From the NCBI GenBank assembly GCA_903821355.1, contig CAIJKW010000049.1, forward strand, positions 1-56,057: a stretch of DNA of 56,057 nt, read 5' to 3'. Position numbers and translations under genes: made by a program. The notes beneath the pieces are model-generated. The model was not told the DNA's origin. It worked only from the letters and a program-made list of their open reading frames with translations, and ran no database searches. The stretch comes from an uncultured bacterium. GTDB lineage: Bacteria; Patescibacteriota; Minisyncoccia; Phycocordibacterales; CAIZLB01. This document shows, piece after piece, positions 2,674 through 9,706 of the stretch (within the stretch, counting starts at the first letter, position 1; the number at the start of each line of letters is the position of its first letter).

Positions 2674-3420
2674 TTAGTTCCTCTCCTTAGAAACTGCCCA
2701 CAGAGCTTCAAACAAACCTCGCATTGTATTTGCAAATTCTTGATTCTCCACAACAAAACCAAAATTTTCATCGGCAGTGGATATAATTGAAACCTTGTTA
2801 TCATAAATAAAAATAGTTTCAGCAGTGTGAATAAAATCAGGAGCAAGTCTCAAATCACGCATAATATTTGTTTGATATATATCTTCCATCACCTCCGTGC
2901 TTTTCATTCTTATACTTCTTGCTATTATGTCTTTCTTTACTCTTTGCACCAGCCATTCGTCAATAAAATCCTTACCAACCATGTCGATAACGTCCGCTCC
3001 AGATCCAATAAATAAATATTCCTTGTTTTTAACCTTCAAAACATCGTCAAATATACCCCTAATTGCCTTTTGACCTGAAAAATATAGGAGAGTTGGCCCA
3101 TCTGTCTTTGGTTTATAAAGTTTTAGCAGATCTACTGAAACTTTTTTAGCAGTAACCATCTGAGTTTCAATTTGTTTGACCAAAACTTCCGGCGATTCTG
3201 CCTTATATTTAATTTTCTTTGCATTCGGTATCACAGAGACCAAGCCCTTCTCTGACAATTCATCCAAAACCAAATAACATGTTGGCCTTTTAATGTTTGA
3301 CGAATGAGCAAGGCTAGCAACAGAAAATGTCCCAAACTCTAGGGCCTTAATATATACAACGGCCTGTCTTTCTGTTAGACCAAGTGAAATCAACTTATTC
3401 TTATACTCAATAGTGTCCAT
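2674..3420 (-). CDS. TrmB-family transcriptional regulator (cassette 1)
   Basis: N-terminal wHTH LGLTERQAVVYIKAL...IKRPTCYLVLDELSEKGLV, YKAESPE linker, C-terminal IYDNKVSII...FEALW typical of TrmB. Confidence 0.88.
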   Translation of the reverse strand: MDTIEYKNKLISLGLTERQAVVYIKALEFGTFSVASLAHSSNIKRPTCYLVLDELSEKGLVSVIPNAKKIKYKAESPEVLVKQIETQMVTAKKVSVDLLKLYKPKTDGPTLLYFSGQKAIRGIFDDVLKVKNKEYLFIGSGADVIDMVGKDFIDEWLVQRVKKDIIARSIRMKSTEVMEDIYQTNIMRDLRLAPDFIHTAETIFIYDNKVSIISTADENFGFVVENQEFANTMRGLFEALWAVSKERN

Positions 3421-3428
3421 TACCTTTA

Positions 3429-3562
3429 ATGATATAGCTCTTACCCCATTTTGTCAAAATCTGTGACAACATTTCATGAATCCTAATATATGGCTAAATA
3501 TAGTAACTATATCTATATTTGTGTCACCCTTCTTTGACAATATATAGCATTTGTTTTATTAT
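3429..3562. promoter_or_regulatory. Back-to-back sigma70 promoters with TGTCA-N7/8-TGACA palindromes over the -35 boxes
   Basis: Plus: TTGACA 3534-3539, 17 bp, TATTAT 3557-3562. Minus: TTGACA 3457-3452, 17 bp, TATCAT 3434-3429. Palindromes at 3452-3468 and 3522-3539. Confidence 0.65.
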
Positions 3563-3568
3563 ATAACC

Positions 3569-4669
3569 ATGATAAATATAAACATAAAAAACAAAAACAG
3601 AAATATATTGGTAATAATCTTAGTCTTAGCCGTGATTATAGTTGGATCAATCATGAGCTCAAACAAAAATGGTAAGTTAGCTATTGGTGCAGTACTCCCC
3701 CTTACCGGACCAGCACAGTTTTTTGGTGAAGAAATGAAGAAGGGTATGGATCTAGCCAATCAAGGCTTTAATGTTAATTTAGTTTATGAGGATAGCCGAT
3801 CGGACACAAACTCTGGGATTTCTGCATATCAAAAGCTAAAATCACAAAACAATCTAGGCGCAGTTATATTGTCTCTAAGTTCAGTAGCAAATGCAGTTGT
3901 TCCTATCGCAGAGAAGGATAATGTTTTATCAATGCAAACATTAGTATCAGCTAGAAAAGTGAAGGGTGATATGTCTATTAGATATTTTACATCAGCAGAA
4001 CAAGAAGCGCCCATCATGGCAAACTTTGCTGTAAACTCTCTCAGACTAAAGAATATCGCAATTCTAAGCAGTAATGATGAATACGGAAAAACATATGCGG
4101 AAGTATTCAAAAATACTGTAGAGAGTGCTGGTGGAAAAGTTGTGGATGTAGAGGAGTTTGATAAAAAAGATCAAGATTTCAAAACTCAAATCACTAAAAT
4201 CAAAAGTTCTGGTGCAGACAGTGTCTATGTTATTGGACTAGACAATCAGCTTGTTAGTATTTTTAAACAAATGCACGATATGAATCTAATGCAAACAAAA
4301 ATGACAAACTGGGTACTATCTTCTCCAAGTGTTCAAGAAAAAGTTGGCGTTAACGGTGAAGGAGTTTATATGACAACACCGGAATATTATTTGTCTGGAA
4401 ACCAAAAGGTTCAAGATTTCACAAACGCTTATGTTAAAAGATACAATTCTAAGCCAAGTGCATATTCTGCAATAGGTTATGATCTTACTGGTATCTTTAG
4501 CCAAGCAGTTAAGGGTGCTAAGAATTCAAAGGAGGTGCTAACTAACCTAAAAAACATAAGGGATTACGATGGGCTAATGGGAAAACTGAATGTCAGCGAT
4601 AAAGGAGAAATTACCTTTCCGCTTTTCCCTGCAAAAATTGAGAATGAAAAAATGGTGTTGGTTAAATAA
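3569..4669 (+). CDS. Membrane-anchored LivJ/LivK-like substrate-binding protein (cassette 1)
   Basis: N-terminal TM; IGAVLPLTG, YEDS, NDEYG, DFKTQITKIK, YSAIGYD motifs; ATG 3569 preferred over TTG 3551 from promoter spacing. Confidence 0.9.
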   Translation: MININIKNKNRNILVIILVLAVIIVGSIMSSNKNGKLAIGAVLPLTGPAQFFGEEMKKGMDLANQGFNVNLVYEDSRSDTNSGISAYQKLKSQNNLGAVILSLSSVANAVVPIAEKDNVLSMQTLVSARKVKGDMSIRYFTSAEQEAPIMANFAVNSLRLKNIAILSSNDEYGKTYAEVFKNTVESAGGKVVDVEEFDKKDQDFKTQITKIKSSGADSVYVIGLDNQLVSIFKQMHDMNLMQTKMTNWVLSSPSVQEKVGVNGEGVYMTTPEYYLSGNQKVQDFTNAYVKRYNSKPSAYSAIGYDLTGIFSQAVKGAKNSKEVLTNLKNIRDYDGLMGKLNVSDKGEITFPLFPAKIENEKMVLVK

Positions 4670-4690
4670 TATTTCTAAGGCAACAAGAAT

Positions 4691-4727
4691 ACAAAAACTC
4701 GCACATAATTCTGTTGCGAGTTTTTGT
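4691..4727. terminator. Bidirectional intrinsic terminator
   Basis: ACAAAAACTCGCA...TGCGAGTTTTTGT between two convergent binding-protein genes. Confidence 0.8.
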
Positions 4728-4754
4728 TAATATATATTTACGATTTTATATTTC

Positions 4755-5879
4755 TTATTTTACCTGCATAACCTTCCAAGTACTATCTTTAACATCACCT
4801 TTCTTATCAAAGCTATATACTCCCGCATAACCATGATACGGTGCAACGTCAGACTTAAGATAATCTTTAAGGTCCATATTACCTTTATTTTGCAAAGCAG
4901 AAACCAGAAGCATTAAACTATCATATCCTCTATCTGCATACGCTCCAGGATATTCATTGTATCTAGCTTTGTATGCTTCGTTGAAAGATTCTGAATCTTT
5001 AGGACTAATCACAAAAATATTATCTTCATTCTTTATTTTTACGACTCCCTTTTTCTGAAGACCTAGAGGAATTTCTGTAGCCATAAGAATTTGAAAGTTT
5101 GCTTTTAATTCTTGTTTCTTTGTAATTAGAACTGTTGTCGCTTGATCAAAACCTGTGTAAAGAATTCCATCGACACCAGCGTCTTTTGCTTTTAGAATAA
5201 TTGATTTTATTCCGCCACCATCTACTGAGTTTTCCGTGTAAGTAAACCTTTCGACAAAGACAAGCTCCGCTCCAGAATTTTTAATAGCTTTTTCAAACGG
5301 AGCGATGTGACTTTCTGACCACCCACTATTCTCCACAACAATCGCTATTTTTTTCAACCCTCTTTCCTTAATCCAATCTGTTGCGTATTTTTCTTTAGCT
5401 TCGTTTTTGGGAGCGCCAAAGAAAAAGTAATCTGAGTTTGCAGTTACGAACTCACTCGTGTTTGCAGGGCTCATTGATACGATTTTATTTTTCTCAACAA
5501 CGGGTCCGGCTGCATCAGCCAAGAAGCTCCATGTAGGACCAATGATTGCTTGAGGGTGATTGAAGTCTACCATTTTCTGAATTGCAGTGATGGTGTTTTT
5601 GGGATTAGTTTGATCATCTTCATAGACAACCTTAACTTTCACACCCTTCTTTGCTAATTCTTCTTTAGCAAACTCAATACCACTTTTAATGTTGTTTCCA
5701 TCAATTGACGCCATTCCAGTTTCTGATAACACGGCACCAATAACTATCTCTTGATTATCAGCTTTAAAGTTACCAAGATTTTTACCAGAGGCCAATTCAC
5801 TTTTAAAAACAGTCCAACCTAGTATCGCTAATATCACAATCACTATCACAGATATAACTATATTCTTTTTGTTTTTCAT
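4755..5879 (-). CDS. Membrane-anchored Liv-type substrate-binding protein (cassette 2)
   Basis: N-terminal TM; IGAVLSETG, YEDDQTNP, IIGPTWS, YADRGYDS motifs. Confidence 0.9.
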   Translation of the reverse strand: MKNKKNIVISVIVIVILAILGWTVFKSELASGKNLGNFKADNQEIVIGAVLSETGMASIDGNNIKSGIEFAKEELAKKGVKVKVVYEDDQTNPKNTITAIQKMVDFNHPQAIIGPTWSFLADAAGPVVEKNKIVSMSPANTSEFVTANSDYFFFGAPKNEAKEKYATDWIKERGLKKIAIVVENSGWSESHIAPFEKAIKNSGAELVFVERFTYTENSVDGGGIKSIILKAKDAGVDGILYTGFDQATTVLITKKQELKANFQILMATEIPLGLQKKGVVKIKNEDNIFVISPKDSESFNEAYKARYNEYPGAYADRGYDSLMLLVSALQNKGNMDLKDYLKSDVAPYHGYAGVYSFDKKGDVKDSTWKVMQVK

Positions 5880-5998
5880 TTTTATTGAATTTAATTTGTA
5901 ACAGAATATATTATTTCAGATTTGTCAACTATTACAATGGTTTATTGACAAAGTTATATATATAAAATAGTATATAAATGAAAGCTTAAATCAAACAT

Positions 5999-6763
5999 AT
6001 GTCAATAAATCTTGATAGAAACATACCAACAAAACTCTTAAATGACTTCCAAAAGCTTGGTTTTAGCGATAAAACAGCCCGAGTTTACTACTCCCTTTTA
6101 AAACTTGGCTCTGTTGGCGCCTCCAAGATAGTTAAAGAAACAGGCCTGCACAATCAGTTTGTCTATAATTCGCTCAAAGAATTGGAAGAAAAGAACATGG
6201 TTAGATTCAGTTTAAAGAACGGCAGAAAGCAATTTGAAGCACAAAATCCTTCTCTTTTGGTGTTAGAAGCTGAAAAACAAAAGGTTATCGCGGAAAACCT
6301 ATCGCAAAACCTATCTAGTTTAATTGATTATGTTGATGAACAGACGTTTGATGTTATAAAAGGAACAGAATCCTTTGTGGCATCAGAATTCAAAGCTCTA
6401 CAAGAAGCTCCAAATGGATCAGAATTCTTGGTTATAGGAGGTATTGGAGATCAATATGCTGAAACAATGGGTAACCTTCTAAACGAGTATGAATATCAGA
6501 GAAACAAAAAGGGTATTAGTGTCAGATACTTAGGATCATTAGGGCAAGAAGAACATATTAAAGAAAAATATGACCCTAGATCAAATTTTAAATCCAGACT
6601 ACTCGATGGCCGATTTGAAAATGAAGTTAATATGAGTATTTTTCCAAATGAGGTGGTATTTAACCTATTTGGAACACCACATGTACGATTTGCTATTAAA
6701 AGCCCTAAAATGGTAGAAAGTTATAGAAAGTTTTTTGAGGTTTTGTGGAGTATGGGGAAATAG
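5999..6763 (+). CDS. TrmB-family transcriptional regulator (cassette 2)
   Basis: LGFSDKTARVYYSLLKLG...VYNSLKELEEKNMV, FEAQNP, C-terminal FFEVLW. Confidence 0.88.
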   Translation: MSINLDRNIPTKLLNDFQKLGFSDKTARVYYSLLKLGSVGASKIVKETGLHNQFVYNSLKELEEKNMVRFSLKNGRKQFEAQNPSLLVLEAEKQKVIAENLSQNLSSLIDYVDEQTFDVIKGTESFVASEFKALQEAPNGSEFLVIGGIGDQYAETMGNLLNEYEYQRNKKGISVRYLGSLGQEEHIKEKYDPRSNFKSRLLDGRFENEVNMSIFPNEVVFNLFGTPHVRFAIKSPKMVESYRKFFEVLWSMGK

Positions 6764-6766
6764 ATA

Positions 6767-7537
6767 TCAAAATTCAGCCTTGTTTTGAGCCCCAAAATCA
6801 GGCTCCAACGTATTCCAAATATACAAAAACAATCCTTCAAACATGGTTGAGACAATTTTTGAATCTATAATAATAGAGTAAACCTCGTTTTCTTTGAAAG
6901 AAAAGAAGAATACATCAGAACCAATAATAGCAAAAGAACCACCAGGCCACTTCTTTGGCATTTCACGCGTTATTCTATAAGGGTCACTCTTATAGTGTTC
7001 ATGAACACCCAAACCATTTGGTACAAGCAAAAAAGTAGTAGCGCCCGTCTTTTTATTCTTGCGCTCTCTCCAGTCAAAAAAGAACTTTGGAAACAATTCC
7101 GTCAATTGCGACTCAAAAAAAGCATAGACCAGCTTCAATCTCTCTTGAACCATGACATCCAACATGTGTTCAAATGCTATTTTTACACCCTCAACCCCAA
7201 CGAGAACCCTAGTTTTAGGGTTATCTCTTTCCAATTTGAACATACTATTCAGATCCCCAAATATTTCATTTAAGGCCAATTCCTTATTTTTCAATATCCT
7301 TTTAAGATTTTCAGGATTCTCTGCGGAGTAGTATTTAACGTTGTTTTTCTTCCAACTGGATACTAACCCTTGAGATTCAAGCTCTTCTAGAATCGCATAT
7401 ACCGTAGTTCTTGGTATTTTACTGTTTGTGGCCACCTTATAGACGGGTACATCCTGCTCTCTGAGTAAGCTGACGTATATCTTTGCTGCCTTTTCACTTA
7501 TCCCAAATTCTTCTAGTTTTTGCAATATATCTTCCAT
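6767..7537 (-). CDS. TrmB-family transcriptional regulator (cassette 3)
   Basis: FGISEKAAKIYVSLL...IPRTTVYAILEELESQGLV, YSAENPENL, C-terminal LFLYIW. Confidence 0.88.
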   Translation of the reverse strand: MEDILQKLEEFGISEKAAKIYVSLLREQDVPVYKVATNSKIPRTTVYAILEELESQGLVSSWKKNNVKYYSAENPENLKRILKNKELALNEIFGDLNSMFKLERDNPKTRVLVGVEGVKIAFEHMLDVMVQERLKLVYAFFESQLTELFPKFFFDWRERKNKKTGATTFLLVPNGLGVHEHYKSDPYRITREMPKKWPGGSFAIIGSDVFFFSFKENEVYSIIIDSKIVSTMFEGLFLYIWNTLEPDFGAQNKAEF

Positions 7538-7691
7538 ATTCTATATTGTGTCAGAAATACCGACAACAGTAAATAGTCTTTTCTATGGCTTATTTACTTA
7601 ATAAACTGGAATATATAAAATATACAATCGATTTTTATGACAAGAAATACAATGCAACATATAATAGTGTTTGTAAACTAATATATAAAAT

Positions 7692-8834
7692 ATGAAAAGA
7701 AAAAACATTTGGATACTCGTAATAGTAGCAATCGTAATCATAGCTATAATAATTAATGTTAATAAATCAGCAAAATCTGCCAATAACATTAAAATAGGGG
7801 CCACTTTAGCATTATTTGGTAACCTTTCTTATATTGGAGAATCAGAAAAGAATGGTTTAACAATGGCCATCGAGGATATAAACAAAGCTGGAGGTATAAA
7901 AGGCAAGAAGCTAGAGCTTATAACTGAGGATAATCAAGGATTAGCAAACCCCGCGGTGTCAGGTGCAAAGAAACTAATCGAGGTAAATAAGATTGATGTT
8001 TTATTCTCTTCCTTTACTCACATCACTCAAGCTGTGCAAGACACTGTAGCTACAGCAAAAATACCAATGATCTACGCTTCTGCGCTAGCTCAAATCGCAG
8101 AGAGTAATGACCTATTCTTCAGAGACTACTTTGATACAAAAGATATGGGTAAAACTATTGCAAATCAAATTGTTATAGACAATCATAAAAGAATTGCTTA
8201 TCTTGGTCAAAATAACACAGCTTGTAATGAATATCTTGGCGTAGCAAAAGAAATACTCGCAAAGAATGGGAAGTCTGTTGTTGCTGAATATATGTTTGCA
8301 CCTGAAGATAATGATTTTAAAACCAGTCTAACAAAGATCAAGACTTCAAACCCTGATGCAATATTTACCTGTTCTCATACCAAGTCGGATATCTTAATGA
8401 GACAAATGGATCAGTTGGGAATGATTAATATACAGACATACCAATTGCTTGCTCCATTTTTGCCAAGTGGCGACACAGTAGAAGTTAGAAATCTTTACGA
8501 AAAAAATAAAACAGTTTCAGGATGGTTTGGATTCGTTTATGGATCATTAACAGAGAAGCAAAAAGAATTCAAAGACAGGTACGAAAAAAGATTTGGGGTT
8601 AAGCTTGCTGCTGATGCAACCTTTGCCTATGACGATGTTATTGCGATGTCTCCCGTTATAGAAAAATGTCTAAACAATAATGGAAAGATAGATAGTGTTT
8701 GTTTCTCAGAGAATTTTAAGAAGACTAACCATGATGGAATTTCAGGTCTACTTACATTCAATGACAAGGGTGTATCTCAAAGAGACAGCTTGCTTATGCA
8801 GATTAAGGATGGTGAGTGGGTTACTGTGAAATAA
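7692..8834 (+). CDS. Membrane-anchored Liv-type substrate-binding protein (cassette 3)
   Basis: N-terminal TM; IKIGATLALFG, INKAGGIKGKKLELITEDNQG, DFKTSLTKIK, FAYDDV. Confidence 0.9.
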   Translation: MKRKNIWILVIVAIVIIAIIINVNKSAKSANNIKIGATLALFGNLSYIGESEKNGLTMAIEDINKAGGIKGKKLELITEDNQGLANPAVSGAKKLIEVNKIDVLFSSFTHITQAVQDTVATAKIPMIYASALAQIAESNDLFFRDYFDTKDMGKTIANQIVIDNHKRIAYLGQNNTACNEYLGVAKEILAKNGKSVVAEYMFAPEDNDFKTSLTKIKTSNPDAIFTCSHTKSDILMRQMDQLGMINIQTYQLLAPFLPSGDTVEVRNLYEKNKTVSGWFGFVYGSLTEKQKEFKDRYEKRFGVKLAADATFAYDDVIAMSPVIEKCLNNNGKIDSVCFSENFKKTNHDGISGLLTFNDKGVSQRDSLLMQIKDGEWVTVK

Positions 8835-8859
8835 CAGAATTTAGAAGTAACGCAAAAAC

Positions 8860-8892
8860 AAAAAAAGAGCTTTGAAATAAGGCTCTTTTTTT
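8860..8892. terminator. Bidirectional intrinsic terminator
   Basis: AAAAAAAGAGCTTT...AAGGCTCTTTTTTT between convergent genes. Confidence 0.75.
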
Positions 8893-8905
8893 ATGTTAAA
8901 ACATA

Positions 8906-9706
8906 CTATTGTAAAACAACCGCCAAAAGTGCAATCGCCGCTGTCTCCGCTCTTAAAACATTCTGATTAATCCTTACGGACTTTATTTTAGCGTCCTCAA
9001 ATAGCTTAATTTCCTTTGGAGACCAACCGCCTTCTGGACCAATCAAAAAGACTAAATCAGTATAGGAATTCTTTTTCTTTAGAATTTCACTAATATTCAA
9101 ACCATTTTGATTACAAACAAACACTCCGACCTTCTTTTTATCGATAGACTCAAGCTCTTTTAAAGCTTCACCGAGTTTTTTAACAGGGTCTATTACAGGA
9201 ATTTCACTTCTTCCACATTGTTCAGATGCTTCAACCAAAATTCTTTGAGATCGAGACATATTCAAGTCCTTTTTTATTGTTCTATCTGTAATAATTGGAA
9301 CGACTTGAGAAACACCGAGCTCGGTTGCCTTTTGTAGGACCAAATCAAAATTATCGTTCTTAATTAAGGACATTATTATAGTCACCCTAACTTTTGAGGA
9401 CTCAGTCTTATTATCTTTGCTGGCTTTGCTAGTCACGGCTTTTTTTATGGACTTATCTTCAGACGATTCCACTTTATCAGCCTTACTAGTCTCCAAAACC
9501 CGCAAAACCGCCCCAGCACTATCCATTTTTTCTATAATAGCCAGATAATCAAAGCCAGAGCCGTCAAAAAGCACCACTCTACTACCCGCAAGATATCTAA
9601 AAACCTTTTGCCACTGATTTAAAATGGAATCATAGTCAAAATATCTCAAAGTTACTTTTTCTTTTGGGTTTATCTTGTCTTTTACGAAGAATCGGTGCAG
9701 TCTCAT
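8906..9706 (-). CDS. rsmE: 16S rRNA m3U1498 methyltransferase RsmE
   Basis: MRLHRFF, QKATELGV, EASEQCGR, IGPEGGWS, LRAETAA. Confidence 0.96.
   Translation of the reverse strand: MRLHRFFVKDKINPKEKVTLRYFDYDSILNQWQKVFRYLAGSRVVLFDGSGFDYLAIIEKMDSAGAVLRVLETSKADKVESSEDKSIKKAVTSKASKDNKTESSKVRVTIIMSLIKNDNFDLVLQKATELGVSQVVPIITDRTIKKDLNMSRSQRILVEASEQCGRSEIPVIDPVKKLGEALKELESIDKKKVGVFVCNQNGLNISEILKKKNSYTDLVFLIGPEGGWSPKEIKLFEDAKIKSVRINQNVLRAETAAIALLAVVLQ

Follow-up and report, generated by a model that had tools for sequence, protein, structure and literature searches.

Gene content of the locus

The stretch of DNA analysed here, 56,057 nucleotides long and referred to as the window, is contig C49 of G000, the genome assembly of an uncultured bacterium of the Patescibacteria, and its positions 2674 to 8834 carry six open reading frames (ORFs) arranged as three divergent pairs, each joining a TrmB-like regulator (T1 to T3) to a Liv-type solute-binding protein (SBP; S1 to S3). 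In order, the pairs are T1(−)/S1(+), S2(−)/T2(+), and T3(−)/S3(+), and Pfam matches place nusA and tig (1565–2614) on one side of the array and rsmE (8906–9706, minus strand) and clpP on the other. A preliminary description of this DNA had read the region between tig and rsmE as three TrmB/Liv-type SBP units with divergent spacers of about 120 to 155 bp, strongly diverged paralogs, terminators that bound the array and separate the convergent SBP genes, and no Liv permease or ATPase gene in the window. Each of these points was borne out: ORF and Pfam analysis recovered the three pairs; the spacers measure 148, 119, and 154 bp; identity is low among S1 to S3 (22–26%) and among T1 to T3 (24–26%); hairpins fold in the gaps concerned; and no BPD_transp_2 permease or ATP-binding cassette (ABC) ATPase was matched on the contig. 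The GC content of the array equals that of its surroundings, and the window cassettes have no linked gene for a kinase, cyclase, or chemoreceptor.

In the first cassette, T1 (2674–3420, minus strand), a TrmB-like regulator of the TrmBL2 type with 248 aa (PF01978, E = 4e-12, residues 12–78), is separated by divergent spacer 1 (3421–3568) from S1 (3569–4669, plus strand; Peripla_BP_6, E = 2.4e-50), a HAAT/LivJ-type binding protein of 366 aa that is predicted to be membrane anchored. The S1 length is counted from ATG 3569; the ORF opens at TTG 3551, a start that would give 372 aa and shrink spacer 1 to 130 bp. S2 (4755–5879, minus strand; 374 aa; Peripla_BP_6, E = 4.9e-37), of the same type and likewise predicted to be anchored, faces T2 (5999–6763, plus strand; 254 aa; PF01978, E = 1.8e-11) across spacer 2 (5880–5998), and T3 (6767–7537, minus strand; 256 aa; PF01978, E = 1.8e-14) faces S3 (7692–8834, plus strand; 380 aa; Peripla_BP_6, E = 9.1e-44), a putatively anchored HAAT-type protein with a pocket unlike that of LivJ, across spacer 3 (7538–7691).

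Hairpins with an A-run, stem, and T-run are found in all three intergenic convergent gaps, with z scores of −3.0 to −7.3 against shuffled sequences, and would terminate transcription in both directions. They lie at 2641–2670 in the tig/T1 gap (−24.3 kcal/mol, z = −7.25; 2665–2646 in a consensus scan), at 4691–4727 in the S1/S2 gap (z = −3.3 on the plus and −5.0 on the minus strand), and at 8857–8895 in the S3/rsmE gap (z = −4.1 and −3.0, respectively). The simple consensus terminator scan detected the 2646–2665 hairpin only. Unlike these three convergent junctions of the array, the one between T2 and T3 (6763–6767) has no hairpin, the two stop codons being 3 bp apart.

Putatively membrane-anchored binding proteins with divergent pockets

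S1, S2, and S3 cover nearly the whole Peripla_BP_6 (PF13458) model, which describes the two-lobe type I periplasmic-binding-protein fold. Sequence searches of the PDB gave amino acid-binding proteins as the best solved relatives of S1 (3td9, 4n0q, and 4gnr, E about 1e-22); the best matches of S2 and S3 were also HAAT binding proteins, those of S3 including 4gnr and proteins deposited as "extracellular ligand-binding receptor." Likely candidates for the ligands are amino acids or related small acids; the PDB relatives are only about 20–25% identical to S1 to S3 and span amino acid binders and other HAAT proteins, and no single ligand was assigned. The preliminary description had taken the SBPs to be membrane tethered, and the N-termini agree: all 12 SBPs encoded in G000 open with basic residues, after which comes a hydrophobic segment some 20 residues long, and in none of the 12 was a Cys lipobox read from the sequence. 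The G000 SBPs are thus probably tethered to the outer membrane face via an N-terminal anchor.

Pocket columns were read from an alignment to E. coli LivJ, with the list of ligand contacts taken from the docking section of PMC6983066; at about 20% identity, this alignment is uncertain. Within that limit, the Ser79 column is S/T in S1 to S3, that of Thr102 is S, T, and A, and that of Tyr202 is L, F, and H. By the same uncertain alignment, none of the three retains Glu226, a ligand-contact residue of LivJ, although S2 may do so if a gap is shifted. The S2 pocket is the most LivJ-like, retaining equivalents of Ser79, Ala100, and Thr102. The contact columns vary among paralogs, and in six ortholog pairs between G000 and G003, a genome of the same genus, 66 of 71 are identical (overall identity 69–84%). 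Pockets that differ between paralogs and are fixed between orthologs would suit a repertoire of distinct, maintained specificities.

TrmBL2-type regulators and conserved divergent spacers

The matches of T1, T2, and T3 to PF01978 are confined to the first 80 or so residues and score 46.2, 44.1, and 53.8 bits, respectively, against a gathering cut-off of 25.6. Because T3 had no sequence match below E = 0.07 among PDB chains, a fold search was needed, and an AlphaFold2 model of T3 was built from a 25-member family alignment (pLDDT 86.7, pTM 0.56). The model consists of a winged helix, a long helix (residues 76–104), and an alpha/beta domain (108–243). Foldseek returned TrmBL2 (5box) first (E = 4e-13, 17–18% identity) and then TrmB (3qph, E = 1e-8), and the C-terminal domain alone matched the PLD-fold proteins NucT, Nuc, and Zucchini (2e-5 to 2e-4). 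The family alignment has no invariant His or Lys, and so no HKD-type site is conserved. T1 to T3 end after the PLD-like domain, at 248–256 aa against 338 aa for TrmB, and have no C-terminal sugar-binding subdomain; passages of PMC4158304 describe TrmBL2 and TrmBL3 as lacking the approximately 70 residues that hold the sugar-binding domain, and TrmBL2 as chromatin-like and devoid of an effector domain. Since the proteins stop at this point, the model makes T1 to T3 TrmBL2-type in build rather than sugar-sensing TrmB, and with the subdomain missing, the ligand responsiveness that the preliminary description had ascribed to TrmB proteins need not extend to them. Relatives of T3 in public sources carry automatic names only (34 clusters), and TrmB clusters of about 250 aa in a protein atlas come mainly from phyla of the candidate phyla radiation (CPR) and from Nanobdellota, which serves as a lead only. 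A T3 search of genome contigs found four loci, among them a 62%-identical relative on a Candidatus Saccharibacteria record.

The divergent spacers are conserved, whereas the convergent ones are conserved at only 44–49%. Spacer 1 contains a 30-bp, near-invariant block (about 3449–3479) with one variable column across three species; spacer 2 is 77–79% identical to congeners; and spacer 3 is 86% identical between species, against 75–81% for the flanking coding DNA, with an invariant 35-bp block at 7543–7577. Within the spacer 1 block lies the inverted repeat TTGTCA-N7-TGACAA (3451–3469), whose left half overlaps the predicted −35 box of T1, and spacer 2 holds TTTGTCAA-N16-TTGACAAA (5921–5952), with the predicted T2 −35 box as its right half. 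The inverted repeats and conserved blocks of the spacers are candidate operators. The generalized motif TGTCA-N4–20-TGACA occurs in 5 of 34 cassette spacers and in none of 70 other divergent G000 spacers (shuffle mean 0.05); we keep it as a candidate operator for the T1 and T2 cassettes only, and its halves there coincide with −35-like hexamers.

The cassette family in the genome

The G000 assembly (0.98 Mb in 57 contigs, with 98% marker completeness) encodes 12 Peripla_BP_6 proteins and either 10 TrmB-like proteins by Pfam and BLAST or 11 by a family hidden Markov model. An immediately adjacent, divergent TrmB-like gene accompanies 7 of the 12 SBP genes in G000 and 34 of 54 over all annotated stretches, including those fetched from other genomes; the pairing of regulator and SBP is not due to chance, and the modular unit of one regulator and one receptor proposed earlier is supported. 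For an eighth SBP gene of G000, on contig C43, the regulator is 1.4 kb distant, and a receiver-domain-like ORF intervenes. That locus (C43:2793–8422) shows two further oddities: the intervening ORF, of 161 aa, matches the receiver domain at 29.9 bits, just under the Pfam cut-off of 30.2, and a 384-aa ORF of unknown family stands between two SBP genes. Two TrmB-like members, C6:83788–84513 and C30:55409–56167, lie away from any SBP gene, and so the family has other targets in G000 too.

Orthologs of T1 to T3 in two or three congeners are 81–91% identical and those of S1 to S3 are 74–82% identical. T1 shows 85–87% identity in two congeners with an omega (dN/dS) of 0.03–0.05, and T2 81–91% with an omega of about 0.06; over the six window genes, omega is 0.02–0.09, against 0.04 for tig, 0.11 for rsmE, and 0.08 for clpP. 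These values are rough, because synonymous divergence (dS) between G000 and the congeners is saturated (1.2 to above 2.5), and they place all six genes under purifying selection. The co-phylogeny that the preliminary description proposed to test was found across genomes: over 34 cassettes, the regulator and SBP distance matrices correlate with a Mantel r of 0.68, a value reached by 0 of 5,000 permutations. In 19 of the 34, a single cassette of another genome supplies both the nearest regulator and the nearest SBP, and such shared neighbours cross families, for example, between G021 and G332 (regulator 51%, SBP 47%). These comparisons indicate that cassettes are inherited as units, in numbers that vary widely between species.

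Related genomes interleave cassettes with one Liv-type importer

Of 41 genomes from the genus, family, and order, 14 have Peripla_BP_6 matches, from 1 to 31 per genome. All nine relatives with at least five SBPs have one or two BPD_transp_2 matches, and none of the 27 relatives without SBPs has any. In G003, a contiguous island of about 40 kb holds 14 SBP genes and 10 TrmB-like genes, forming 10 divergent pairs, with one LivH-, LivM-, LivG-, and LivF-like gene each scattered among the cassettes; the best NCBIfam families of these four are UrtB/LivH, LivM/UrtC, UrtD/LivG, and UrtE/LivF, all under the curated cut-offs. Loci in G007, G011, and G021 resemble this island. LivH, LivM, LivG, and LivF are present at the inspected loci of G003, G011, G098, G115, G187, G332, and G335, and the congeners G001, G003, G004, and G005 have both Liv ATPases and two BPD_transp_2 matches. 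Among the SBP-rich relatives, a single permease match was obtained for G017, and LivF was not matched in G007 at E ≤ 1e-30. The preliminary suggestion that the SBPs feed a shared permease encoded elsewhere is thus the pattern seen in related genomes, where cassettes lie among or beside a single LivH/LivM/LivG/LivF set. LivF itself is 99–100% identical among G001, G003, and G004, the other orthologs (T2, S2, and LivG) being 82–97% identical; the near-identity could reflect very strong constraint or a recent exchange of part of the island. One divergent partner of an SBP gene in the G003 island is a KilA-N gene in the regulator's place (L010:15771–16598).

A sample of 400 genomes from the phylum contained the SBP family in only 22 other genomes, of which seven were inspected. 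The simplest layout, an SBP-LivHMGF operon alone, was seen in G098 and G187; in G115 such an operon abuts a cassette, and G332 combines the operon with two regulator/SBP cassettes detached from it. The G335 operon comprises four SBP genes and LivH/M/G/F, and a TrmB-like gene diverges from it. The remaining two, G427 and G437, have an SBP gene and no Liv gene in the stretch fetched. On the strength of the series from G098 to G335, the TrmB-like regulator appears as an old companion of the Liv importer in Patescibacteria, with the regulator and SBP pair as the unit that multiplied. In G427, which belongs to the same class as G000, the SBP is a weak family member whose gene ends overlapping that of a 454-aa protein with dCache and HAMP matches (L031:4719–7302), and this SBP may be coupled to a membrane sensor.

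The repertoire differs sharply between congeners. The site between tig and rsmE has no cassette in G002, one in G005, three in G000, and six in G003; in G002, tig and rsmE are 124 bp apart, and that genome has neither an SBP nor a permease. The 31 SBPs of G003 include an ortholog at ≥57% identity for only 7 of the 12 G000 SBPs, and none of its 14 island SBPs has a close counterpart in G000.

An incomplete translocon in the G000 assembly

A complete Liv permease/ATPase set elsewhere in the genome, named in the preliminary description as the evidence that would count against it, was not found in the G000 assembly, where LivM alone is present. The sole BPD_transp_2 gene (C6:41396–42262) is LivM-like; tblastn with 10 Liv proteins from relatives found LivM only, at 92%, with no fragment of LivH, LivG, or LivF in the assembly. 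LivG and LivF, which are present at 85–100% identity in four of six congeners, were not found in G000. Neither PF00528 (BPD_transp_1) nor PF12399 (the LivG C-terminal motif) has a match in the assembly, and the neighbouring genes of the three stand-alone ABC ATPases suggest FtsX-like, MacB-like, and Lol-like partners for them.

Comparison by blastn located the site of the missing genes. Contig C6 is collinear with G003 as far as hpf; position C6 40190 then corresponds to G003 132439 and C6 40708 to G003 163145, a jump of about 30.7 kb after which the alignment picks up again within the 3′ portion of a TrmB-like gene, and a further 2.9 kb is skipped before LivM. In G003, the stretch missing from G000 (about 31 kb) carries LivH, LivF, and LivG together with 12 SBP genes. 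The remnant regulator on C6 is the product of a 5′-truncated gene, 216 aa without a winged helix, and its G003 ortholog of 269 aa is 91% identical. The scar (C6:40190–41396; L001:250–1456) includes about 520 bp of unique sequence with a 167-aa ORF without a Pfam match in place of the roughly 31 kb, and it is followed by the TrmB-like gene minus its winged helix and then by an intact, lone LivM gene. Independently assembled Logan contigs from four lake-water runs of one study bridge both junctions at 100% identity, with no loose ends reported; the four runs contain 20–26% of the sampled words and their contigs cover 10–14 of 30 bins, so that the uncovered parts are uninformative.

Given the deletion seen by synteny, the truncated gene, the bridging contigs, the presence of LivG and LivF in congeners, and the lack of tblastn fragments, we lean towards the view that the G000 strain has lost its pump. 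Branch lengths in three-taxon dN comparisons of G000 and the pump-bearing G004 are close (T2, 0.062 vs. 0.061; S2, 0.072 vs. 0.067), and with the cassettes intact and no acceleration of T2 or S2 relative to G004, a loss would be recent.

Discussion

Probable receptor modules of a shared importer. Cassette arrays of relatives interleave with one LivH/LivM/LivG/LivF set, and on this ground, we consider it likely that the cassettes are separately regulated receptor modules of one shared Liv-type (HAAT) ABC importer. Each SBP, held on the outer membrane face by an uncleaved N-terminal anchor, would capture one class of small solute and, by analogy with known HAAT systems, deliver it to the single shared LivH/LivM/LivG/LivF translocon. 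The divergent TrmBL2-type regulator most likely binds the conserved spacer and controls the partner promoter and probably its own, and with one regulator per SBP, each receptor could be switched on or off separately. In G000, LivM would be what is left after LivH, LivG, and LivF were lost through the deletion of about 31 kb at the syntenic site; with the translocon incomplete, the window SBPs are currently without a detectable pump, through either a recent loss or an assembly gap. The earlier label of "no transporter" thus holds in part: LivM is all that the G000 assembly contains, but relatives encode the full Liv set with identical cassettes.

Several observations weigh against this reading. 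No complete ABC importer is present in the G000 assembly, yet all 12 SBP ORFs are intact, and the combination of intact cassettes with no acceleration is compatible with a loss of recent date, a copy that went unassembled, or a role independent of the pump. The assembly is in 57 contigs, and the contigs that bridge the deletion have a depth of 2–3 and come from runs that are possibly the source of the G000 assembly itself. TGTCA-N4–20-TGACA was rejected as a family-wide operator, being present in only 5 of 34 cassette spacers. Within single genomes, regulator and SBP distances are uncorrelated (r = −0.31 in G000 and 0.15 in G003, neither significant) and give no sign of a co-duplication of paralogous cassettes. 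By the structural model, the regulators are without the sugar-binding subdomain, and their nearest solved fold is that of the chromatin-like TrmBL2, which has no effector domain. Finally, we infer both links, of the SBPs to the translocon and of the regulators to the spacers, from sequence.

That G000 does carry LivH, LivG, and LivF on unassembled or unbinned DNA, so that the cassettes feed an ordinary pump, is a possibility of some substance to which we give clearly less than even weight. Arrays of paralogs are hard to assemble; contig C12 ends about 330 bp from an SBP gene; LivM and every cassette remain intact and conserved; and the sets of the SBP-rich G017 and G007 are likewise incomplete in their assemblies. 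The marker completeness of G000 argues the other way, as do the position of the syntenic site inside one contig, with a truncated gene as the scar of the deletion, the Logan contigs across both junctions, and the failure of tblastn to find any fragment of the three genes. A different explanation for the intact genes is that the SBPs act without a transporter, as individually regulated ligand traps, sensors, or host-attachment proteins at the cell surface; 12 intact SBP genes, selection on the window genes, the absence of a complete ABC importer as assembled, the membrane tether, and the weak family member that precedes a dCache/HAMP protein in G427 all speak in its favour. We hold it to be improbable, since Liv-type permease matches accompany the SBPs in every SBP-rich relative, the inspected islands have their Liv genes within the cassette arrays, no kinase, cyclase, or chemoreceptor gene is linked, and a cytoplasmic regulator cannot touch an extracellular SBP. 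The preliminary description had offered roles as sensors, ligand traps, or adhesins; with no signalling partner linked to the cassettes, such roles are unsupported as a general function. A transporter-independent function is conceivable for the G000 strain in particular, because LivM only was found and the rest is apparently deleted; that the G000 SBPs, with the pump deleted, now hold scarce solutes at the surface, sense, or bind host-cell molecules would be a long shot.

The role of the regulators could be questioned separately, as the TrmB-like genes might encode general, TrmBL2-like DNA-coating proteins located beside SBP genes by chance. Their best fold match and lack of an effector subdomain are compatible with this, and 2–3 of the 11 G000 members are found off SBP genes (C6:83788, C30:55409, and the truncated copy beside LivM). 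It is nevertheless very unlikely: the 10–11 paralogs are about 25% identical to one another while their orthologs are 81–91% identical, each is locked to a particular SBP ortholog, the divergent spacers are highly conserved, and a general chromatin protein needs no diverged copy for each target gene.

Comparison with known systems. The use of one HAAT translocon by several SBPs, an unlinked one included, is established for LivJ/LivK and BraC3, as described in passages of PMC2978685, and the E. coli layout that we saw consists of livJ and livK-HMG. The cassettes resemble E. coli LivJ/LivK with LivHMGF and the rhizobial Bra system with BraC3 in that several Peripla_BP_6 SBPs, here of putatively different specificity, go with one HAAT translocon. 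They differ from both in having 5–31 receptors per Patescibacteria genome of about 1 Mb rather than 2–3, in SBPs that are predicted to be membrane anchored rather than periplasmic, most with their own divergent TrmB-like regulator, and in translocon genes that are scattered singly among cassettes and mostly missing in G000. As with TrmB in the trehalose/maltose cluster of Thermococcus litoralis and Pyrococcus furiosus, T1 to T3 adjoin the SBP gene of an ABC importer; that transporter, however, belongs to a different ABC family and takes up sugars; TrmB, at 338 aa, has a sugar-binding C-terminal subdomain, whereas T1 to T3, at 248–256 aa, have none; the hosts here are CPR bacteria; and regulators number one per SBP instead of one per operon. 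TrmBL2 of the Thermococcales (5box) shares their length class (264 aa), the succession of winged helix, long helix, and PLD-like domain, and the lack of an effector subdomain, but it is a single, abundant protein with little sequence specificity, unlike the many diverged paralogs here, each tied to one target gene. A search of the main texts of papers on TrmB and Liv-type SBPs in CPR and on orphan HAAT SBPs found no prior description of regulator/SBP cassettes.

Significance. The cassettes are best read not as a new transporter-free sensing system but as receptor modules of a shared Liv-type importer, whose pump is missing in the G000 assembly. Ultra-small CPR bacteria are usually described as poor in regulators and transporters and are unable to make most building blocks. 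In this lineage, a single genome of about 1 Mb reaches 31 SBP genes and at least 21 dedicated regulator genes in the fetched stretches, and up to 31 SBPs around a single pump point to nutrient scavenging that is controlled substrate by substrate. Between species, the repertoire changes rapidly, as one site with 0, 1, 3, or 6 cassettes in four congeners illustrates. G000 may show reductive evolution under way, with the pump gone and the receptors intact, and would offer a natural test of what the receptors do without a transporter; its importance would rise if the pump-less state is real and the receptors are expressed.

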